DNA from: a bacterium
Lineage (GTDB): Bacteria; Patescibacteriota; Patescibacteriia; JBAXGH01
Length of the DNA stretch: 64,000 bases
Direction of reading: 5' to 3'
Assembly: GCA_037139515.1 (NCBI GenBank)
Contig: JBAXGH010000003.1
Coordinates: 12,800-76,799 of the forward strand
The notes beneath the pieces were generated by a model. The model had not been told where the DNA came from, did not search any database, and saw only the letters and a program-made list of their open reading frames with translations. Position numbers and translations under genes: made by a program. Every line of letters begins with the position of its first letter. Positions within the stretch are counted from its first letter, which is position 1. Positions 52,405-64,000 of the stretch are shown piece after piece.

Positions 52405-53232
52405 TTATTTTCGCGTATTAAGTTTTTTGTTTTCTGACTGTTTTAAAAAATTATGTGCAGTGACGATGGATCTGCCGAGTCGAGCTTCAAGCTTTTTGCG
52501 CGCACCGCCGGCAATTTCGCCGCCAACCAGCGCATCATCTTTGAGCTTTGATACGCCTTTTGAATCCTCGACGCGATGAATTTCGGTCGTGGCGCGCTCT
52601 CCGAGCATATTAAAAATCAGCTCTAAATCATTCATGTGATCCCGCAGGCTTTCGCGTTTCAAACCTTTCAAATCCTTATATTCGCTTGGTGTGACGCCGA
52701 AAGTCGCTTTTGAAATCTCAGCCGTCAGAATCTCAAAGTCGCGATCTTCCTCCGCGCCACGGTTCTTCCATTCATCAGTCAGTTCTTCACGAATCGCGAT
52801 ACCGCGGAGGCGCTTTTCAATCCAACCCTCGCTATATCCTTTGAGTTGATACAAAGCACGGGTGCGCTTGGTAGCCAGTTCCGGATCCTCGATTTCCTGG
52901 ACGCGTTCATAGCCGACTTTAGCGAGCCAACGTTTGAAAGGCTCGGCTTTCGGGGAGTGAATGGATTGAATAAGACGGAAGACACTTTCGGTATTGGCAC
53001 AATTTATTTTTTGCGCGCCCCCGACGGTTTGAATATCAAGGGGGGTGGCAATTTGCCCCCACCCTTTAGAAAGTTCCGGATCACGCCGTCGCATGTCTTT
53101 CAGATATCCCTCGGGTTGAACCGAGTCTGTCAGCGCCGCCACAATATCAACGATCACAAACCACCATTCGTTTTGATGAATAGTTTTTCTGATTTCTTTG
53201 CCCTTGAAAAGTGATATTTTGATGTGTTGCAT
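52405..53232 (-). CDS. Bro-N / DinD-like (DNA-damage-inducible protein D family) protein
   Basis: N-terminal KGKEIRKTIHQNEWWFVIVDIVAAL is a KilA-N/Bro-N-type motif. The C-terminal region parallels E. coli DinD (ELKEHNK-like helices, GYSEGW, GERATTEI). Confidence 0.5.
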   Translation of the reverse strand: MQHIKISLFKGKEIRKTIHQNEWWFVIVDIVAALTDSVQPEGYLKDMRRRDPELSKGWGQIATPLDIQTVGGAQKINCANTESVFRLIQSIHSPKAEPFKRWLAKVGYERVQEIEDPELATKRTRALYQLKGYSEGWIEKRLRGIAIREELTDEWKNRGAEEDRDFEILTAEISKATFGVTPSEYKDLKGLKRESLRDHMNDLELIFNMLGERATTEIHRVEDSKGVSKLKDDALVGGEIAGGARKKLEARLGRSIVTAHNFLKQSENKKLNTRK

Positions 53233-54769: not shown

Positions 54770-55642
54770 TTAGACGCCAATTTTCCAAACATTCTTTTCA
54801 AGGAATGCCTCGATGGTTTGTCTTTTAGCTTTATTGATCAAACTTGAATGTGAGATTCCGCTCATCTTTGCGTGTTCGGCGAGTGTCATAATTTTTTTTC
54901 CTTCTAAATACGCTAACCGTTTATGGTAGCTACTCGTGAGCGCCTTCCCCACCATTTCTTCCATAATAACGGTCGCGCCTTTCGTATCAAATTCTCTGAA
55001 CGCTTCGTAATATTTGCTCCTATCAATAAACTTGATATTCACGGGCACAAAACCTTCACGAATCAATAAATAGTTATTCAGCACCCGACCTATTCGACCA
55101 TTTCCGTCAACAAACGGATGCGTATACTCAAAAGTCAGATGCAGCCTGGCGATACGTTTAATGATGCTTTCGTGGCTCGAAGCCCCGTATTCGATCAGCA
55201 TTTTTTGGAGACGCTCAGTAATTTCTTTCGGATTTGGAGCAATATGACTTCCGACACGTACAAACTCATCATCTTTTCTGAATCTTCCGGCAACATCATC
55301 GCGAATATTCGAAATCAGCATTTTGTGCAAAAAAAGCATCACATCGAGCGTCAACTCCTGTTCTTTAGCCCGAACATCTATATACGAAACAACGCGCGCC
55401 AGATTCTTGGCTTCAAAAATCTCACGTTCAGTGATGTATCTATCCAAGTCGACTTGAAGAAGAATCTTTTCAGTTTCTTCAAGCGTCAGTGTACTATTCT
55501 CGATGGCATTTGAGTTATAGACCTGCTCCGCCACCTCGGCTTCAGAAATAAGCTTAATCAAAGCATCTTTTCCTTGAGCTGCTTTATAGTATCTTTCGCG
55601 CAAAGAATTGATTTTACCAAATACATTGAGTGTTTTAGCCAT
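54770..55642 (-). CDS. Fic/DOC family protein (class II, N-terminal inhibitory motif), probable AMPylase
   Basis: Fic active-site motif HPFVDGNGRIGR. The N-terminal SNAIEN matches the (S/T)xxxE(G/N) inhibitory helix, and there is a C-terminal wHTH-like region. Confidence 0.85.
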   Translation of the reverse strand: MAKTLNVFGKINSLRERYYKAAQGKDALIKLISEAEVAEQVYNSNAIENSTLTLEETEKILLQVDLDRYITEREIFEAKNLARVVSYIDVRAKEQELTLDVMLFLHKMLISNIRDDVAGRFRKDDEFVRVGSHIAPNPKEITERLQKMLIEYGASSHESIIKRIARLHLTFEYTHPFVDGNGRIGRVLNNYLLIREGFVPVNIKFIDRSKYYEAFREFDTKGATVIMEEMVGKALTSSYHKRLAYLEGKKIMTLAEHAKMSGISHSSLINKAKRQTIEAFLEKNVWKIGV

Positions 55643-56256: not shown

Positions 56257-56660
56257 ATATTTGATTTTACGCGATTATTAAGACCAATGTTCTTCCACGG
56301 GAAGATGTTTAGCCGACCCGTTCGACGTTTGGAGGAACGCAAAAAGTGGCCAAGAGATTTGACCCGATGGCACATGAATGCCCCGGATGAAATCTCCCAA
56401 CCACTTAAGTGATCAGTCTCGGTCTCATTTATGGTTTCCAGCAGATTTCCCTGGTTGCCTACCCACGAGCCTGCGTTTATGGCGCAAAGCTGTGGGAATG
56501 AGTCGAGGTTCGCATGACTTTATGCGCGAACTACATCTCTTTTTTACTTCTTACTTGGAGAGTATACGGGGGAATTGGGGGCTTGGCAAATCATTTGCCA
56601 TAACATAATCATGAATTTGACAGATTCTTATCCGGCGACAATGCCTCGCATCCATAAATA

Positions 56661-57017
56661 TCAACGAGTGCGCCGATACGGCTTCAGTCCATCAATTTGT
56701 TGTTGAAGCCGAAGCTCGGTTTCAGCTTGACTTTTTCTTACCTGCGTCATTTCTTCGAAATACTTCGACCATGTATCGTTCACTTCATTAGTAGATCGCG
56801 TGTGAAAGAAGATAACCTCAACCGCAACTGTAACCAGGATTAGAAACGCTGCAAACAATACCGCGTAAACTACGTTTCGATTTTCGCCCTGTTGCTCTTT
56901 AATATCTACCCTAATGGCTGTAACTTCTATTGCGAGAGACTTAAGTGCTGCCTCGGTGAGAGGAATTGTCGGTGGTGTGTTTGAGGGCAAGTTCGGATCA
57001 GAGGTACTTGTAATCAT
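56661..57017 (-). CDS. Small single-TM protein, last gene of the defence operon
   Basis: 118 aa with one TM (VVYAVLFAAFLILVTVAVEVIFF). It overlaps the upstream gene by 4 bp (translational coupling). Confidence 0.45.
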   Translation of the reverse strand: MITSTSDPNLPSNTPPTIPLTEAALKSLAIEVTAIRVDIKEQQGENRNVVYAVLFAAFLILVTVAVEVIFFHTRSTNEVNDTWSKYFEEMTQVRKSQAETELRLQQQIDGLKPYRRTR

Positions 57018-57241
57018 ACGCCTGATTGATAAAAGCCTTTTATAACCAAAACGCTCCCCTGATCCTCTCCTGCGATATCAAGATTTTTATATTCCTGAAA
57101 ATTGACACCGCCGAGAGCAACGCCGGAGCCAAAAGAGACTCCGGGGCCGACTATAACCCCGTTCACATTAATCGCCCGTAGAGGCGTAAGCGTCCCATCA
57201 GGATTCTCCTTAAAAACAGAAAAGAATCTGTATCTCGTCAT
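57014..57241 (-). CDS. Small hypothetical protein, third gene of the defence operon
   Basis: 75 aa, Gly-rich (GPGVSFGSGVALGG). It overlaps the methyltransferase gene by 4 bp. Confidence 0.4.
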   Translation of the reverse strand: MTRYRFFSVFKENPDGTLTPLRAINVNGVIVGPGVSFGSGVALGGVNFQEYKNLDIAGEDQGSVLVIKGFYQSGV

Positions 57242-60200
57242 AAAGTTGTTTGCACTATACTCAAACGTCCGTTAGATTTTTCTAAATTAACACCCGTTTC
57301 TAATTCTGCGAGCTGATTCAGCGTGAGCCCGAGAGCACTTTTTAGTCCAAAGACAGCATCAAGCAATTGACATTCGATACTATTAAATTCCTCGCGTACT
57401 CTTAAATATGATTTGCCCTCTTCACCGTCAGATTCTCTCTTTAAGTGAAGAACGATCGACTCGCTCTCTTTGGTAATATTAACAATCTGACAATTATCCC
57501 TATCTAGAAAATCCGACGCACCCTTGAGCGTATGTGCGACGTCTCCAACACGAAACAATTCATTTATTTTCATAAAGTGTTTTTTATTCTCGATGATTTC
57601 TATTTCTGCAGGAGTAAAGCCGTAGAGTTCATAAACCATATGATCGATCTGATTTTCAAGGATATCAGTATCGGCTTTAGAATTGGATTGTTTCATAACT
57701 ATAATCTGGTCAACAATCAATTCAATCTGAGTGGAAATCTCTTTTTGTAGTGGTGAATCTATTATTGGAACCCGCACCTCTCGTAAGTGCCTAGGGTAAA
57801 AGTGCAAACCATTCGCAAACAGCTCTGCAAAATACCACGAGGACACCCTACAGTTTAAAACTCCGAGCATGTATCTAAGACTGTACTTTCTCGAATTTGA
57901 TATTTTTTCATCAGTAAATACGGATTTCAACTGACGATATTTCAATCCTCTTAGGATGTAATATGGAACGGCGTTTATGAGTGCGTCATTATTATAAAGC
58001 CCATTAGTATCCAACACCGCCTGTATTCCAGATCTGCCGACTATGTTTTTTACTATAATCTTTTCAGCCTCAAAAAGTTCTGGAAAAACAGGAGCTTTGT
58101 GCTTCTCTGGCTCGTAACTTAAGTACTTAATTTCATTTATTGAGTATCGATCGAAATATTTTCCCTCAATATACATCTTGAGCCCGGGCGAAAACTGATC
58201 CCTGATATATTCTTCTTTCTTTATCTGGTTCACAGTACTATGAAGTTCTGCACCTTTTGAAATATATAAAATATCGTCCATTACTATAGATAACGACTGA
58301 ATCTTCTTTAACAGCTTGATTTTATCTACAGACAGACTGATCTTAAAGTTTCTCTCTTCATTAAGCTTAAAGAATTTCGTATTTATTTGGGTCATTTTCA
58401 GTTCATCAAGTCTTGGAACATCCCCACTTTCATGAAAATAGATATTTAAGTCATAGTCATGCCGCTGTTGAATTTTTTGTATCAATGTAATTTGAGTATC
58501 AACCATTGCTGACTTGAAAACTCTATATGCAGAGAAATCGATTAGACTTATTATTTTATAGCCCAAAAAAATATTTCTAATTCCCTGGCCATATGATTGA
58601 GCCATCCATTTGTTGCTTGTTATATAAGACAGAACGCCTCCATCCTTAAGCAGATTGAGTCCGCGCTCATAAAAGATTATGTATAAATCATAATGTCCAT
58701 TCGCACTTAAATAGTTCTTCTCGAAATACTTTTTTAATAGGTCATCTATCTTCCAGATGCTTACATACGGCGGATTGCCGATTACAATATTAAAACCTTT
58801 CACACCAAACATGAACTCAGCGTCAAAAAACTGACACGAATTTTCACTATCAAATGGTAAATAGGTTTTCAACTGTTTAGTTTTTTCCGACGACCCGAAT
58901 AGACCTTCCTGCTGTTGTTGCAAAGACAAGAAGTCTGCTTTCAATCTTTTCTTTTTAGTAATGCTTTCCGTTTTAAAATATTCGTCTCGAATAGCCTGTA
59001 TCTCTTTAGCGAGATGAGTAGAATTATCACCAAGCATGACTGCGCTCTTTCCTGTTTGAAGAGGTAACAACGTATTCGCACACACGAACTTGAAATCCAA
59101 GTTCGGCAACGGTTCGATGCCCATGTTTTTTGCTTTTGGATTTAGTTCTTCATCAACTAAGATGGAAAGCCATGCTCGGAGGCGGGCAATATCTATTGCC
59201 ATCGGCTCGATGTCGACGCCGTAGAGGTTATTTTTTATAATCGCGAGCTTGGTTTTATAGACATCAAAGCGCGTTTCAAGGCGCTCATATATTGAAAGCA
59301 TGAGCTGCAACATACCCATCGGAAAGGCACCGGAACCGCAGGCGGGGTCGAGGATCTTCGCATCATCCAGCGCGTCAATCAGATATTTCTTATAGGGTGT
59401 AAGGTCTTCTCGATAATTACGGTTATCAAACTCGTGCTCTTTTTTGTCCAAAAGCAACTCAAGTATATGGGAGCGCTTATTATCATCCGGCAACTTCCCC
59501 TCCAAATACGCGCGCATGCTCTCGCGGCACATGTAGTCTACAATTTCACGCGGGGTGTAAAATGCACCTTTCGCCTTGCGCGCCTGCTCGCCAGCTTCAT
59601 CCGTCTGCTCGGCAAGTAAGTTCTCAAAAATGCGCCCTAACATCTCCGGATCGATGGCGACTTGCTGAAACGTACTCGTGCTTTCGTCTGTCGTAAAATT
59701 ATATTGATTGAGAGCCGCAAAAAAACGATCAAAATAATCTTTCGGAAAATTAATCTTCGTTTCACCGAAGTGATCCGTTGGGCGTGGCTCAAAAAGCCCG
59801 CCGTTCAGATATGGTGTCTCTGTATCCGTTGAGAACAAGTGTTTTGGTGTTTCAACTTTACCAAAAAGATCACGTTTGACGCCGGATTGGCGCTCACGAT
59901 CTTCTAATGGGGTATTTAAGACCTGAAAAAAAAGTTTTTCGAGTTTTGCGCGGTAGTATTCTGACGAGGCTATGCTTTCGGTCTCAAAATATTTATGAGC
60001 ATCAGCAATAATTCCCTTTCGCCGCAGGAACCAGCAGAAGATTAAACGACCAATAAGGCGGTTTGCAAAGAGCCGCGCATGTTTCTTATCAAAAATTTCT
60101 TTTGTCGACACATGCTCCACGAGCTCCGCGAAGAATCCAGCAATTTCCTGATAGAACTTTTTATTGAGCGGTTGCAGGTCAAAACTCTGCCAGATCATCC

Positions 60201-60765
60201 CGTGAACTTCAGCTTTTTTTGTAAAATCAAAAGGACCTTCCCATTTTGCGAGAATCTCTTGTTGGGTGACGGTTAACGCTCCGTGTAACTCGAGGGTACG
60301 GATTGCGTATTTGTTAGAAAGCACGAGAACGACACGATCTGCCTCTTTTGGAACGATAATGTCAACACCAATCGGCTCATGCGCAAAAAATGGTTCATCC
60401 TCAAAGTTTGGAGTCAATGCAACGACGGCTGAAATGATGCGTTTGGAGGTTTTTTGTACCCAATACAACTTAAAATCAAGATTTTTGCCATTCCCTTCAG
60501 CAACCTTGTAGCAGGCGCGACGATCACTAAACCCAGCCGCCTCCATAAACCAACCCGCATGATCACGGATCTTTCCCTTTGAATCATTAAAAGGCTTTGG
60601 AGAAGTATCTGCCGCAACACCAAAAAGACCCGAGATTGCATTCGTCACCTCAAGAGCATGAGCAAATGATGGCTCGGCAGACAACTTCAAGAGAGCCTCC
60701 TGAAGCAGTTTTAACTTTACTGGAATATTATTTGTTGTCCTTGGCATAATAGAGGATTCCCTCAA
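57238..60765 (-). CDS. Type IIG/PglX-like N6-adenine DNA methyltransferase (gamma class) with a large N-terminal helical region and a C-terminal target-recognition region
   Basis: MmeI/PglX-type helical linker blocks are present (LIGRLIFCWFLRRKGII, FFQVLNTP, YLNGGLFE). Methyltransferase motifs follow: GAFYTPREIVDYM, ILDPACGSGAF (motif I), NIVIGNPPY (motif IV), then about 450 aa of putative TRD. The N-terminal PD-(D/E)xK-like region appears degenerate (LDFKLYWVQK). Confidence 0.8.
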   Translation of the reverse strand: MRESSIMPRTTNNIPVKLKLLQEALLKLSAEPSFAHALEVTNAISGLFGVAADTSPKPFNDSKGKIRDHAGWFMEAAGFSDRRACYKVAEGNGKNLDFKLYWVQKTSKRIISAVVALTPNFEDEPFFAHEPIGVDIIVPKEADRVVLVLSNKYAIRTLELHGALTVTQQEILAKWEGPFDFTKKAEVHGMIWQSFDLQPLNKKFYQEIAGFFAELVEHVSTKEIFDKKHARLFANRLIGRLIFCWFLRRKGIIADAHKYFETESIASSEYYRAKLEKLFFQVLNTPLEDRERQSGVKRDLFGKVETPKHLFSTDTETPYLNGGLFEPRPTDHFGETKINFPKDYFDRFFAALNQYNFTTDESTSTFQQVAIDPEMLGRIFENLLAEQTDEAGEQARKAKGAFYTPREIVDYMCRESMRAYLEGKLPDDNKRSHILELLLDKKEHEFDNRNYREDLTPYKKYLIDALDDAKILDPACGSGAFPMGMLQLMLSIYERLETRFDVYKTKLAIIKNNLYGVDIEPMAIDIARLRAWLSILVDEELNPKAKNMGIEPLPNLDFKFVCANTLLPLQTGKSAVMLGDNSTHLAKEIQAIRDEYFKTESITKKKRLKADFLSLQQQQEGLFGSSEKTKQLKTYLPFDSENSCQFFDAEFMFGVKGFNIVIGNPPYVSIWKIDDLLKKYFEKNYLSANGHYDLYIIFYERGLNLLKDGGVLSYITSNKWMAQSYGQGIRNIFLGYKIISLIDFSAYRVFKSAMVDTQITLIQKIQQRHDYDLNIYFHESGDVPRLDELKMTQINTKFFKLNEERNFKISLSVDKIKLLKKIQSLSIVMDDILYISKGAELHSTVNQIKKEEYIRDQFSPGLKMYIEGKYFDRYSINEIKYLSYEPEKHKAPVFPELFEAEKIIVKNIVGRSGIQAVLDTNGLYNNDALINAVPYYILRGLKYRQLKSVFTDEKISNSRKYSLRYMLGVLNCRVSSWYFAELFANGLHFYPRHLREVRVPIIDSPLQKEISTQIELIVDQIIVMKQSNSKADTDILENQIDHMVYELYGFTPAEIEIIENKKHFMKINELFRVGDVAHTLKGASDFLDRDNCQIVNITKESESIVLHLKRESDGEEGKSYLRVREEFNSIECQLLDAVFGLKSALGLTLNQLAELETGVNLEKSNGRLSIVQTTL

Positions 60766-63700
60766 CAGTATCAGGAGTCATGACCGGTCGAATCTCGGAA
60801 TTCGTGAGTTTAGCTAGAACGATGATCTCCTTCAGTTTCTCATGGTAGGGCATATTTTCTCGGCGTGCCTTTATAATGTCTCTTGTGAGTTTCCGCATCT
60901 TACCATCATCAATCACATTTCGAGTACCGAAGCCAGCCTGCACCGACTGGATATCTTCGGCGGAATATTGTAACTCATACAACGTGCGTAGAATTTCTGT
61001 TTGCTGGCCAACTGGAGCGCCCGGCTCATCTTCGTCGTGGTACGCACCAATATTCCTCGCAGTAATCTCAGCGATCCGGGCACGGTCTATGGAAATCTGG
61101 TCTTTATCATGAGAGCCGTCTTCCGAAGTCGCTCTAATCCATTCCAGCGCTTGCAACGCCGTCACCGCCGCAAACCGCTCACCAGTTTTTTCCATCTGGG
61201 CAAATTGCATGCCGATTGGATTACCCCGATCAAGCAGTCGCGCGCAAGCGAGCACATCCGGACGATCACTTCCGATGTGTTTCCGGCTCGGCAAAACTCC
61301 CCACTTTCCCCTTGGAAGATTATAGATATGTTGCTTATACCCTTCTGAATTTTCTGGATTCTTATCGAACTTCTTAAGGTCGAAAATGTATTCATCTTCA
61401 GAAAGTAAAAAGTCCGCGCTCGATTCCAGCTTCGTGAATGCAGCTTTTCGAACCTCGGAATCTTCGCTATATACATCCTCGAGACTATCCGTGTACTCAA
61501 TCGGGTTTGGTAATTCGGTAAGTACCGATTGATCCGTGCCGATCGTGAATCGGATCAATTCAATCTTGCTCTGCAAGCGGCCAACAAGCCGCAAATAGCC
61601 TTCGAGCTTTTCTTCTGGACTCATGTTGTACACATAGACCGTGCTATGCGTCGAACCAAGACGATTCACACGACCATTGCGTTGAATCATACGCACTGGA
61701 TTCCAATGAAGGTCGTAGTTCACGATCACACCGCAATCCTGCAAATTTTGACCTTCAGAGAGCACGTCCGTGGAAAAAAGATACTGAAGTTCGTGTTCGC
61801 CCGTACCGATTGTGTGATTTTTAGAATTCGGGGAAAAACGCGCCGCGAGGTCATCTGCACTCTCGCGGTTTTTAGAGGAAACGAAAGCGGAGTTCTCTTT
61901 AGTGATAAGTTTGGTGAATTCGGGCAAGTTCTTTTCAAGATATTTGATGGTATCCGCAAAGTACGAGAACACCAAAACCTTGCCTCCCGCAACATTTTCT
62001 TTCCGTAATTTTTCAAGCAACTCTATGAACGAACGAAGCTTAGTATCGTCGGCTTCTACGATAGCGAGCTGCCGCAGAAGATGCTTAATGATCAAGCGCT
62101 CCTTCCCCATGTCCGCACCAAGCTCTTGGGCTGCATAGTTATTAGCGCCGATTGTATCAAGAATCAATTTATCATCCGCCTCCACAGCATCATCGTGTTC
62201 AATATCTTCATCTTCTTCGGCCAACATCTGTTCGAGTGCGTCCATGTCCTTTAAGCTCACAATTTTATCCTTTGCTACGCCGGCCTGAAACATATCTAAC
62301 TTACGATCGTATGCCTCAAGTGATGTTCGGAAGGCGAAAATAGAAGATTCCATTCGCTTCAAAAATATGGTACGCAAAATTCCGTACATTCCCATCTGGA
62401 GCTGTAAATCACGCCCCTCCTCCGAACCGAGCTTCAGCGCCTTGATCTGCTCAGGCGTTTTACCGTAAAACTTTGTCTGATAGATTCTCCATCGATATGG
62501 AATAAATCCCAACATGAGCACCATCTGATAAATAAAATACATTGGCGATTCACTCGCAAGTTCCTCGGTGCTTTTGAACTCCTTTACATTATCGAGCTGA
62601 TCAAGTGGATGTAGTAGACTTTTGCAGTCGTTAAAAATCGCCTCAGGGGTTGCTGCATATATCTTTTCCAGAGGAAGGAAACCGGATTCCAGTGCGAGAA
62701 TCTTTTTTCGAGCATCGGGATGAAAATCGTATTTTTGGTTTTCGGGCACAGAAGCTGGAAAACTCATCTTCTTTCCGTCGAGCGTGAGAAAACCATATTC
62801 TTTCTCAATGCCTTGGCGAGTACGTCGAACGACAAAATGGCGGATGATGGGCATCATCGTCTGTCGAACATAGTCATAATCGATTGTTCCGCCCCTCGTG
62901 ACATCCTGACGAATCTTTTTTTCAAGATTTTGGATCGCTTGGTAAAAGCTCACCATGCTCGTTTGCTTAGTTTTATGATCCACAAGCGGAATTTTGAAAA
63001 CATCCTGGTCGCCACGCGCTCCCAAGAGAATCTGATTTGTGATATCGCTTAATTGATTGTTGATTGGGGTCGCCGTAAGCAGTAAAACGTGCGCCTTTGG
63101 ATTTTGTCGCATCCATGCAAGAAGCTGTTCGTATCGCTGGCCAGAAGTACGTCGCAGGTTGTGCGATTCATCAATAACGAAAAGTGAGACGCTCGCGATA
63201 CGGTCGAGTTTCTGCGCCTCTTCAATCGCTCCCTTATTCTGAAAAACCCGAGGTTCAAAGTTCATCACGCCCTGCGTGAGCAGCTCTTGCGTCCATTGTT
63301 TTTTGAGCGATTTTGGACAAATAACTTCCACGCGCATTTTTCCCTCGCTTCCATCAAGGTACTGCTTCATCACTTCGATCGCAGTATAGGTTTTTCCTAA
63401 ACCAACTGAGTCAGACAGCATTGCAACTCTGTGCTTGTTGATGCGCCGCAAGAGCGCCTGTACGTTCTTTTTTTGAAAATCCATCAACTCATGCGCTCCA
63501 CGAATCGTAGATTGAACCGCTTCATCCTCCAACTCCTCATGATAAATCTCAAAAAGGGTCTTTATGTACATCTCGTATGGACTAAAAAGCTCATCACCAA
63601 TTGGAGATTCGCCAAGAATCTCTACAAATTTTCCGTCCCAATGTTCAGTTGTTTCGTCATTCCAAAGCTCATCAAACCAAAATAGATGTCCGACTTCCTG

Positions 63701-64000
63701 CGACTCAGTTAGTGGCCTTGAAAGGACGACTCGAAGATCGGATTCCAACGCATTAAGCTCAGTATTTTGCGTCAGTCCATTTTTTGTAAAGTTCGACGAA
63801 CCAATTATGCCCACCGCTTGATCAGACTGGTAGCCACCAAAAATATAACACTTGGCGTGAAGGAACGCTTTCCGATACACCCGAACTTCGAGCTGACCAG
63901 AGTCAATCATTTCCTTAATCCTCACTACCGTTTCTTTCAATTCGGGACGAGGACCGATTCTTTCAAGGTCATGGAAAAAGTCTTGATCGGGGTAATCAAC
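60728..64000 (-). CDS. Phospholipase-D (HKD) nuclease domain fused to an SNF2-family helicase; N-terminus extends beyond the window end
   Basis: HKD motif HAKCYIFGG...GSSNFTKNGLTQNTELN. SNF2 motifs: I DSVGLGKT, II VIDESHNLR, III LLLTATPINN, V/VI FSTDVLSEGQNLQ ... QRNGRVNRLGS. The frame is open upstream of the ATG at 63940 right to position 64000, so the gene is partial. Confidence 0.8.
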   Translation of the reverse strand, partial: VDYPDQDFFHDLERIGPRPELKETVVRIKEMIDSGQLEVRVYRKAFLHAKCYIFGGYQSDQAVGIIGSSNFTKNGLTQNTELNALESDLRVVLSRPLTESQEVGHLFWFDELWNDETTEHWDGKFVEILGESPIGDELFSPYEMYIKTLFEIYHEELEDEAVQSTIRGAHELMDFQKKNVQALLRRINKHRVAMLSDSVGLGKTYTAIEVMKQYLDGSEGKMRVEVICPKSLKKQWTQELLTQGVMNFEPRVFQNKGAIEEAQKLDRIASVSLFVIDESHNLRRTSGQRYEQLLAWMRQNPKAHVLLLTATPINNQLSDITNQILLGARGDQDVFKIPLVDHKTKQTSMVSFYQAIQNLEKKIRQDVTRGGTIDYDYVRQTMMPIIRHFVVRRTRQGIEKEYGFLTLDGKKMSFPASVPENQKYDFHPDARKKILALESGFLPLEKIYAATPEAIFNDCKSLLHPLDQLDNVKEFKSTEELASESPMYFIYQMVLMLGFIPYRWRIYQTKFYGKTPEQIKALKLGSEEGRDLQLQMGMYGILRTIFLKRMESSIFAFRTSLEAYDRKLDMFQAGVAKDKIVSLKDMDALEQMLAEEDEDIEHDDAVEADDKLILDTIGANNYAAQELGADMGKERLIIKHLLRQLAIVEADDTKLRSFIELLEKLRKENVAGGKVLVFSYFADTIKYLEKNLPEFTKLITKENSAFVSSKNRESADDLAARFSPNSKNHTIGTGEHELQYLFSTDVLSEGQNLQDCGVIVNYDLHWNPVRMIQRNGRVNRLGSTHSTVYVYNMSPEEKLEGYLRLVGRLQSKIELIRFTIGTDQSVLTELPNPIEYTDSLEDVYSEDSEVRKAAFTKLESSADFLLSEDEYIFDLKKFDKNPENSEGYKQHIYNLPRGKWGVLPSRKHIGSDRPDVLACARLLDRGNPIGMQFAQMEKTGERFAAVTALQALEWIRATSEDGSHDKDQISIDRARIAEITARNIGAYHDEDEPGAPVGQQTEILRTLYELQYSAEDIQSVQAGFGTRNVIDDGKMRKLTRDIIKARRENMPYHEKLKEIIVLAKLTNSEIRPVMTPDTVEGILYYAKDNK

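Follow-up and report, generated by a model that had tools for sequence, protein, structure and literature searches.

Which genes of the locus described here act together, and is what they form a reduced version of a known defence system? The DNA analysed is a stretch of 64,000 nucleotides (the window) from a bacterium of the Patescibacteriota (assembly GCA_037139515.1, contig JBAXGH010000003.1, positions 12,800 to 76,799). Its last part, 56661-64000, carries a gene for a phospholipase D (PLD) nuclease fused to an SNF2 helicase (PLD-SNF2), a gene for a large N6-adenine methyltransferase (MTase) and two small genes, called s75 and s118 below. A first-pass annotation had taken the four for a minimal defence operon akin to DISARM or BREX. 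The comparison of homologous loci shows that the conserved unit comprises two genes only, PLD-SNF2 and the overlapping MTase gene. Both proteins have recognizable domains with intact catalytic motifs. Their overlapping genes stay paired across phyla without a third conserved partner, the specificity domain is hypervariable, and the neighbourhoods are defence-like or mobile. The pair is probably a self-contained, ATP-dependent defence module of the restriction-modification (R-M) type, with a predicted anti-phage activity. Its composition was already described in 2018 and the family has no name; the most original observation of this study is that the s75/s118 cassette also occurs inside R-M operons.

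The conserved unit is a pair of overlapping genes

Four open reading frames, all co-directional and on the minus strand, occupy 56661-64000, as the first-pass annotation had stated. The two upstream ones are:

60728..64000, minus strand: PLD-SNF2, C-terminal 1090 amino acids of 1166, no stop before the window end (open reading frame, Pfam)
57238..60747 (longer start at 60765), minus strand: gamma-class N6-adenine MTase, 1169 amino acids (open reading frame, Pfam, PADLOC)

About 76 residues of PLD-SNF2 lie off the window, the N-terminus being encoded some 228 nucleotides past its end. An exact-sequence look-up recovered the identical locus on two contigs (L001 and L002). The complete protein has 1192 amino acids according to the gene caller and 1166 if translation starts at the ATG giving MNLPKIIDN; we prefer the latter because this sequence matches the N-termini of homologues. 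With the MTase ATG at 60747, the two genes overlap by 20 bp. Since three homologous loci (L003, L004 and L087) have an equivalent MTase start and the same 20-bp overlap, the MTase most likely has 1169 amino acids, rather than the 1175 first given. The 4-bp overlaps initially assigned to all the junctions exist at the other two, not at this one.

In close relatives (49-66% identity), the MTase gene stands immediately downstream of PLD-SNF2, overlapping or nearly abutting it, and the flanks are entirely different. This arrangement is shared by L003, L004, L084-L088, L110, L111 and the Lactococcus cremoris plasmid pJM1F. A scan of one genome per species yielded 80 PLD-SNF2 loci, of which the 54 with at least 3 kb of downstream sequence were used for counts. 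An MTase homologue lies beside PLD-SNF2, on the same strand, in 47 of these 54 species-representative loci, distributed as follows:

adjacent, downstream of PLD-SNF2: 20 of 54 loci
downstream, after one inserted gene: 16 of 54 loci
upstream of PLD-SNF2: 11 of 54 loci
none detected: 7 of 54 loci

The inserted genes encode DUF1016/YhcG nucleases, Schlafen-AlbA2/HATPase_c_4 proteins or DUF4062, cargo of a kind also known from type I R-M operons; among distant relatives, too, they include no DUF499, DrmB or PglZ partner. A reciprocal check gave the same picture: both of two independently chosen MTase homologues (L110 and L111), one of them in a complete Candidatus Nomurabacteria genome, have PLD-SNF2 directly upstream. 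The earlier proposal that PLD-SNF2 and the type IIG/PglX-like MTase form a conserved functional pair is thus upheld.

No third partner emerged. The 51 large same-strand neighbours found in the 80 loci share no family in more than three cases, which argues that the PLD-SNF2 family has no DUF499, PglZ, BrxC, DrmA or DrmB partner. Indeed, these five proteins are absent from the window part of the locus, from the 1.3 kb recovered upstream and from eight closer relatives, within flanks of up to 10 kb, and they are not recurrent neighbours in the 80 genome loci. The absence of drmA/drmB and of PglZ/BrxC, first noted for these 7 kb, therefore extends to the readable locus and to its relatives.

A distant PLD-SNF2 subclade (about 28% identity; L013, L016, L019, L022 and L023) is accompanied by a much larger MTase of 1,490-1,620 amino acids, located upstream instead; the L013 locus has its MTase and PLD-SNF2 genes separated by OLD-type AAA_15/AAA_21 and DUF3226 genes. 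This subclade may be a distinct variant of the system.

The PLD-SNF2 protein

The domains found by Pfam are PLDc_2, SNF2-rel_dom, ResIII and Helicase_C, in agreement with the initial description of a PLD nuclease fused to an SNF2 helicase, over 1070 amino acids long and with its N-terminus off the window. The catalytic motifs are located at:

63785..63862, minus strand: single HKD motif (LHAKCY ... GSSNFT) of the PLD nuclease domain (motif positions)
63161..63403, minus strand: SNF2 ATPase helicase motifs I and II (GLGKT 63389-63403, DESH 63161-63172)

The HKD residues (H150, K152 and G169-N172, GSSN), the Walker A sequence GLGKT and DESH are invariant in 51 homologues. Each chain has one HKD motif only; therefore, a complete PLD active site needs two chains. 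The restriction enzyme BfiI likewise builds its PLD active site from two chains. The same is described for MtsD, the effector of the MANTIS system (bioRxiv 10.64898/2026.09.23.753747).

The full-length AlphaFold model (pLDDT 77.6) matches the Swi2/Snf2 remodellers SRCAP, Chd1 and SWR1 as well as RapA, with E values of about 1e-15, RapA giving the longest structural alignments; SauUSI is not among its top 50 structural matches. The family is large: 4,530 of the 8,000 candidates scored match at E<=1e-10, and the best 120 matches, with 49-66% identity, are nearly all of about 1,160 amino acids and come from many phyla. GenBank phage records contain three weak matches, the best with 27% identity over 74% of the query.

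The methyltransferase

The MTase begins with a conserved N-terminal domain to which no family could be assigned; a helical spacer like that of MmeI, a methyltransferase core of the Eco57I/MmeI type and a specificity domain of the TaqI_C type follow. Its features are:

58765..59349, minus strand: catalytic core (motif I DPACGSGAF 59323-59349; motif IV NPPY 58765-58776)
57598..58470, minus strand: variable target-recognition region, about residues 760-1050, TaqI_C (Pfam and homologue alignments)
57241..57597, minus strand: C-terminal extension of about 120 amino acids (homologue coverage about 89-90%)
60286..60408, minus strand: conserved core of the N-terminal domain, NFEDEPF...GVDIIV...LSNKY.IRTLEL (alignment)

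Pfam identifies Eco57I (2.5e-40), MmeI_Mtase (1.3e-08), TaqI_C (1.8e-08) and N6_Mtase, with a weak, sub-threshold MmeI_hel match, and the best PADLOC model is REase_MTase_IIG (3e-155, 516.8 bits). The motifs follow the gamma-class order, with motif I DPACGSGAF at residues 467-475, NPPY at 658-661 and the specificity domain C-terminal to both, so that the assignment to the gamma class, with MmeI/PglX-type blocks, holds. In aligned homologues NPPY is invariant; within the S-adenosylmethionine-binding motif I, P468 and C470 are nearly invariant, and the remaining residues (D467, A469 and G471-F475) fully so. Among solved structures, PglX/BrxX are closest in sequence (8C45, E 1e-13; 9EWZ, E 1e-11). 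The target-recognition region is swapped among otherwise similar homologues, some of which match with higher identity over only 64% coverage. The C-terminal extension, which matches no family, is missing from 21 of 22 aligned homologues. No inversion or shufflon repeats were found around the specificity domain in the window.

The N-terminal domain, of about 190 residues, is conserved family-wide. An alignment of 61 sequences shows no variation at N114, E116, D117, G127 or R150, and D129 and E153 are each retained in at least 90%; the latter two are invariant in a smaller alignment of 23 sequences. The corresponding segment of MmeI presumably reads VDLFWP...LIEMK, which served as a lead only; its counterpart in the present family is GIDFIIP...VVLS(N/K)(N/K), and the position equated with the ExK that we attribute to MmeI is S144-N-K146, where Glu is replaced by Ser and Lys is not conserved. 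In the AlphaFold model of residues 1-330 (pLDDT 87.2), D129 and S144 lie on successive strands. An alternative register, D137...E153-x-(K/H/S), exists, with E153-x-K in some members. The first-pass annotation had considered this MTase apparently nuclease-dead, with an apparently degenerate PD-(D/E)xK region. Its lack of any detectable nuclease family agrees with this: none of 23 family members matches MmeI_N or any nuclease Pfam family. The invariant or nearly invariant acidic residues keep the claim from being proven, and the domain might hold a divergent active site. We read the N-terminal domain as more probably a coupling or regulatory surface than a nuclease.

Earlier descriptions of the pair

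Van Mastrigt et al. (2018, PMC6098607) described the same pair in silico on the Lactococcus plasmid pLd8 (orf33-orf34), under the label "putative type II R-M system". There, orf33 combines PLD, SNF2 and helicase domains, and orf34 is an MTase classified as "type IIG" by REBASE, without a restriction domain; the authors proposed that orf33 supplies the restriction activity, remarked on the likeness to class 1 DISARM, and named strains JM3, SK110 and N41 as carriers of a similar operon. Milman et al. (2023, PMC9881135) again noted a PLD+SNF gene next to type II R-M genes, at loci of programmed inversion. The view that this composition is not a named defence system is therefore correct insofar as the pair is covered by none of the system models of PADLOC or NCBIfam, and has to be amended insofar as both composition and hypothesis were in print in 2018 and the arrangement was noted again in 2023.

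We measured the homology to the Lactococcus proteins with the related plasmid pJM1F (NZ_CP016750.2). The pJM1F PLD-SNF2 is 35% identical over 97% of the length (E=0), and its MTase 39% identical over residues 48-763 (E 6e-163), the N-terminal motifs included. In pJM1F (L112, 8763-10230) a partial TaqI_C specificity gene in the opposite orientation and an Mpi-family invertase gene come after the pair, an arrangement that looks like a specificity-switching shufflon.

A predicted mode of action

We consider it likely that the two proteins by themselves constitute an ATP-dependent R-M-like module. The MTase would recognize a short, probably asymmetric DNA site through its C-terminal TaqI-like specificity domain and methylate one adenine at N6, so that host DNA is marked as self. 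Unmethylated sites on incoming DNA would be reported to PLD-SNF2, probably via the N-terminal domain of the MTase. PLD-SNF2, recruited or licensed at these unmodified sites, would then translocate on double-stranded DNA, and cleavage would take place when two HKD domains meet, either in a dimer or upon encounter with a second copy; such a PLD cut would proceed without metal ions. That PLD-SNF2 must dimerize or meet a second copy follows from the single HKD half-site per chain. In this scheme s75/s118 would be cargo in a variable accessory slot at the 3' end of the operon. By analogy, the module could be seen as a two-chain form of a type ISP or type III enzyme, with PLD replacing PD-(D/E)xK as the nuclease, or as MANTIS (MtsC and MtsD) deprived of its DUF499 loader. 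It is from the features listed above that we infer physical coupling of the two proteins, asymmetric hemimethylation, the mode of cleavage and the anti-phage activity.

Several data support a turnover of specificity, which speaks for the two-gene model: the variable specificity region of the MTase, the inverted TaqI_C gene with its Mpi invertase in pJM1F, and the inversions described in PMC9881135. MANTIS, which has a homologous architecture, provides a precedent and thereby supports the two-gene model. Other points weigh against this model. The literature searched contains no experimental test of any member of the two-gene family. The invariance of E116 and D117, and the near invariance of D129 and E153, could betray a cryptic nuclease in the N-terminal domain and hence a self-sufficient MTase. 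MANTIS needs its DUF499 loader, and cleavage by MtsD has not been reconstituted, so a two-protein version may work differently. Finally, the contig ends 1.3 kb upstream of PLD-SNF2, and this particular locus is visible only up to that point.

The s75/s118 cassette

Downstream of the MTase gene come:

57014..57241, minus strand: s75, 75 amino acids, Gly-rich, first gene of the s75/s118 cassette (open reading frame)
56661..57017, minus strand: s118, 118 amino acids, single-transmembrane protein, second gene of the cassette (open reading frame)

ATGA sequences form 4-bp overlaps at 57238-57241 (MTase/s75) and 57014-57017 (s75/s118). Neither protein has a significant match in Pfam, PADLOC, NCBIfam or PHROGs, and no homologue of either occurs in the 80 PLD-SNF2 genome loci or in the loci of close relatives. 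Homology searches thus place the small genes outside all relatives of the module; they are not its conserved partners, and the four-gene operon originally proposed resolves into the pair and an independent cassette.

An exhaustive HMMER search at E<=1e-3 gave 52 cluster representatives of the s118 family, all of about 70-150 amino acids, with a conserved transmembrane helix (TVAIEVILFHT) and flanking segments that, judged by eye, are helical and coiled-coil-like. In one of these loci (L089), the s118 homologue is immediately preceded by a 74-aa gene with clear homology to s75. A metagenome scan added 20 further s118 loci, and an s75 homologue is found immediately upstream of s118 in all 21 (L089-L109), with phmmer E values of 1e-12 to 1e-31 in 20 of them and a weak 2e-04 in L107. 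One more locus (L113) has a 72-aa gene at the same place, not compared with s75, which would bring the linkage to 22/22 among the other loci with room upstream. No PLD-SNF2 or MTase homologue is present in the 21 other cassette loci, and a scan of viral contigs for the s118 family gave nothing. It should be mentioned that a word-indexed search of 5.8 billion protein sequences with s75 returned s75 alone, a false negative; a "no homologue" result of this kind is unreliable for very short proteins.

Because the two genes are linked to each other in loci devoid of PLD-SNF2 and MTase, s75/s118 form an independent, strictly self-linked and mobile cassette and are not partners of the PLD-SNF2/MTase module. 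Its informative locations include:

L090: inside a type I operon, flanked by hsdS and hsdR
L099: inside a type III operon, flanked by mod and res
L113: at the 3' end of a type III mod, with which it overlaps
L089: next to a Type_ISP_C gene
some ten further loci: among housekeeping genes such as dnaE

The cassette is thus a repeated, though not an exclusive, companion of ATP-dependent R-M operons, where it stands directly behind the modification or specificity gene; in about two thirds of the informative cases it is surrounded by housekeeping and not by R-M genes. It may represent an undescribed accessory module associated with R-M systems.

In relatives of the window locus, the slot 3' of the MTase gene, here filled by s75/s118, holds variable cargo:

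L110, 10102-10991: Zeta toxin and a 62-aa gene
P0185: Zeta toxin fused to the MTase
L085, 8479-9397: TIR-like 124-aa protein (by eye) and 8xMP membrane protein
L084, 16517-18538: 673-aa GHKL-like protein (by eye)
also in this slot: serine recombinase

This variability suggests that backup or abortive-infection effectors are attached to the R-M module at this position.

Genomic neighbourhoods

Directly upstream of PLD-SNF2, off the window (L002, 1-1278), lies a co-directional DUF2779 gene (Pfam E 2.7e-31) of at least 425 amino acids. The source contig (87,144 bp) breaks off within this gene, 1,274 bp before PLD-SNF2. The DUF2779 gene overlaps the called start of PLD-SNF2 by 4 bp, or ends 74 bp before the ATG that is probably the true one. 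DUF2779 adjoins no other member of the PLD-SNF2 family, either in the 80 genome loci or among the close relatives. Small Cas4-like PDDEXK_1 genes (about 248 amino acids) were seen near three relatives (L084, L085 and L111).

On the downstream side, the window contains an unassigned 156-aa gene and:

54770-55642, minus strand: Fic-domain gene, downstream neighbour
52405-53232, minus strand: Bro-N gene, downstream neighbour

The G+C content is 0.40-0.46 across 56-64 kb, against about 0.45-0.55 in the rest of the window, and together with the Fic and Bro-N neighbours this would fit a mobile or defence island. As to island markers, the window has no tRNA gene, and no integrase was noted among the window open reading frames examined. 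The stretch of about 400 bp between the 118-aa gene and the next gene (56257-56660) has no minus-strand open reading frame; it includes a promoter-like site (56589-56561, minus strand) and a terminator-like hairpin (56364-56348, minus strand). In scans for promoters and terminators, counts were not above those of shuffled sequence.

The flanks of the relatives often contain defence-type genes. L003 is surrounded by housekeeping genes, a Tle1-like gene and AbiE; L085 and L086 by AAA_14/DUF4143, a TIR-like 124-aa protein (by eye) and an 8xMP protein; L087 and L088 by MNT-HEPN. Across relatives, Zeta toxin, TIR-like proteins (by eye), MNT-HEPN, AbiE and inserts of the DUF1016 or Schlafen type are thus encountered. 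The relative with the highest identity, 66% (L084, Logan SRR32573209 contig, 1-23504), lies in a stretch of large unannotated genes, with a lysin-like Amidase_2 gene upstream and a phage-type integrase gene downstream, and its pair may be carried by a prophage.

Alternative explanations

The MTase could by itself be a type IIG R-M enzyme with an unrecognized active nuclease in its N-terminal domain. PLD-SNF2 would in that case only travel with it, either as an accessory or as an effector in its own right, of a type IV-like or backup kind. This is what the best PADLOC model (type IIG, 3e-155) would suggest, and the type IIG enzyme Cj0031, to which MTases lying beside PLD-SNF genes have been likened (PMC9881135), restricts phage as a single gene (PMC4889913). 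The invariant N114, E116, D117 and R150, the nearly invariant D129 and E153, and the D137...E153-x-K of some members are also what a cryptic nuclease could leave. However, the absence of MmeI_N or nuclease Pfam matches in all 23 family members examined, and the S-x-(N/K) found at the strand position equivalent to ExK, with a Lys that is not conserved, speak against it; the authors of the pLd8 study saw no restriction domain either (PMC6098607). Moreover, the tight, overlapping coupling to PLD-SNF2, which spans phyla, argues for a joint function. We therefore judge a self-sufficient MTase unlikely. That the pair belongs to a more extensive named system, be it class 1 DISARM, BREX, BR type-2/MANTIS or ARMADA, with further genes past the window and contig end, appears very improbable. 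The contig does stop 1.3 kb upstream, within the DUF2779 gene, and secondary PADLOC and NCBIfam matches point to DrmD, BrxHII, HmaA and PglX. Yet the scores are far under the cut-offs (157 against 610 for DrmD, 109 against 500 for PglX, 144 against 1100 for the PLD anti-phage model), the eight closer relatives are without DrmA, DrmB, PglZ, BrxC and DUF499 in flanks of up to 10 kb, and no large neighbour recurs in the 80 loci. At the locus itself the upstream neighbour is DUF2779, and the downstream genes (Fic, Bro-N) are unrelated.

It might also be thought that the four or five genes make up a single system here, with s75/s118 acting as a membrane-targeting abortive-infection effector or as a regulator of the R-M module. 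The ATGA overlaps joining MTase, s75 and s118 are of the kind that allows translational coupling; the cassette comes directly behind a modification or specificity gene in type I (L090) and type III (L099 and L113) operons and lies near a type ISP-like gene (L089); and toxin-like genes occupy the same 3' slot in relatives. The cassette is nevertheless missing from all the other PLD-SNF2/MTase loci examined, some two thirds of its informative occurrences are outside R-M operons, in housekeeping surroundings, and neither small protein has a detectable domain, so that a single four- or five-gene system is improbable. The two-gene, self-contained module thus remains the reading we favour. A more far-reaching form of it can be put forward only tentatively. 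The pair would be a minimal, self-sufficient ATP-dependent R-M system of a new "type", a split PLD counterpart of type ISP enzymes with no DUF499- or BrxC-like loader. A linked possibility is that s75/s118 are a so far undescribed accessory of ATP-dependent R-M operons of at least three or four types, inserted directly behind their modification or specificity genes; the cassette might then be a membrane-acting backup or abortive-infection effector, or else a regulator.

Comparison with known defence systems

An SNF2 helicase and a PglX-like methylase form the shared core of class 1 DISARM, BREX type 3, ARMADA and MANTIS, whose mechanisms are poorly understood. The PLD-SNF2/MTase family is the most stripped-down version of this core: nuclease and motor share one polypeptide, and a loader ATPase is absent. 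If the pair works alone, it would show how site recognition by a methylase is passed on to a translocating nuclease without the intervention of four to six other proteins, and would be the simplest experimental model for the whole group. The family is common, with thousands of homologues in many phyla and on dairy Lactococcus plasmids, and current defence annotation would probably call the pair a plain single-gene "type IIG" system, missing the partner gene. The value of this particular locus is modest, since it adds one more member to the family; the s75/s118 cassette is a fresh lead.

Class 1 DISARM shares with the locus a PLD nuclease, an SNF2 helicase and a large N6-adenine MTase, and DrmD is the second-best PADLOC match of PLD-SNF2. 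It differs in its defining DrmA and DrmB (DUF1998) proteins, absent here, and in its separate DrmC, whereas the PLD domain is here fused to SNF2. The NCBIfam models DISARM_DrmD (cut-off 610) and DrmD_b (cut-off 950) give 156.9 and 90.5 bits, respectively; on the MTase, the PADLOC model DrmMI reaches 48.5 bits compared with 516.8 for the IIG model. These scores do not support a DISARM collapsed into two genes; the likeness is one of resemblance, not of membership. The top PADLOC match of PLD-SNF2, "C3a139 HKD+Snf2", was considered as a possible named system and set aside, being only cluster 139 of a 2018 survey of type III CRISPR neighbours (PMC6546367).

BREX differs by its PglZ phosphatase and BrxC ATPase, absent from this locus and its relatives. 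BREX-1 PglX scores 108.7 bits against a cut-off of 500, and the BREX-2, -5 and -6 models are also below their cut-offs. BREX type 3 (BrxHII and PglXI) and ARMADA, which consists of ArmA, ArmB, YprA and a GajB-like protein (PMC12458937), have in common with the pair a RapA-like Swi2/Snf2 helicase next to a PglX-like MTase. Both have additional obligatory parts (PglZ, BrxC and others, or YprA-family helicases), and their helicases bear a TUDOR or REase domain in place of the N-terminal HKD domain. MmeI, the Cj0031-type IIG enzymes and BREX PglX share with the MTase a homologous helical spacer, an Eco57I/MmeI core and a TaqI_C specificity domain. MmeI differs in that no MmeI_N match is found here and in that what we take to be its D-x(n)-ExK motif is replaced by D...S-x-(N/K).

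The logic of type ISP (LlaGI, LlaBIII) and type III (EcoP15I) enzymes is similar: a nuclease, a superfamily 2 (SF2) motor, a gamma-class or Mod MTase and a specificity domain, with asymmetric, hemimethylated sites and ATP-driven communication along the DNA between sites. Type ISP enzymes are single polypeptides with an Mrr/PD-(D/E)xK nuclease, and type III enzymes combine a beta-class Mod with a Res subunit bearing PD-(D/E)xK, whereas the window encodes two polypeptides with an HKD nuclease, a Swi2/Snf2 motor and a gamma-class MTase. The likeness would thus be an analogy of mechanism, not family membership.

The nearest characterized system is MANTIS, also called Gao_RL or BR type-2, composed of MtsA to MtsD (bioRxiv 10.64898/2026.09.23.753747; Rakesh & Krishnan 2026, PMC12839542). 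MtsA is a DUF499 AAA+ ATPase required to load the MTase, and MtsB a small protein assigned to DUF3780 in PMC12839542 and to DUF3870 in the preprint. According to the latter (bioRxiv 10.64898/2026.09.23.753747), the MTase hemimethylates asymmetric 6-bp sites, the dimeric PLD-SF2 effector prefers inverted sites, and the system restricts unmethylated DNA experimentally, cleavage by MtsD not having been reconstituted in vitro. The architecture is shared, with an N6-adenine MTase for recognition and an N-terminal HKD/PLD nuclease fused to an SF2 motor. In contrast, the DUF499 ATPase and MtsB (DUF3780/DUF3870) are absent from the window locus and its relatives, and MtsD is described as SauUSI-like, whereas the window protein is longer and is a RapA/remodeller-like Swi2/Snf2 enzyme. 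The NCBIfam model phospholipD_antiphage gives 143.9 bits on PLD-SNF2 against a cut-off of 1100, and the best-scoring stretches of HmaA and of PADLOC PLD_Helicase fall in its C-terminal helicase lobe; these three models are not confirmed as representing MtsD. MANTIS is thus matched in architecture, apparently not in sequence membership.

The Lactococcus pairs of pLd8 and pJM1F come closest. Like the window locus, they consist of a gene for PLD, SNF2 and Helicase_C domains followed by an overlapping gene for a IIG-type MTase with TaqI_C and no recognizable restriction domain. They differ by their inverted partial specificity gene and invertase, and the window locus by the C-terminal extension of about 120 amino acids on its MTase, followed by the s75/s118 cassette. 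By its sequence, the window locus is best classified as a member of this pLd8-type, as yet unnamed two-gene family, with a predicted function in R-M-like defence.

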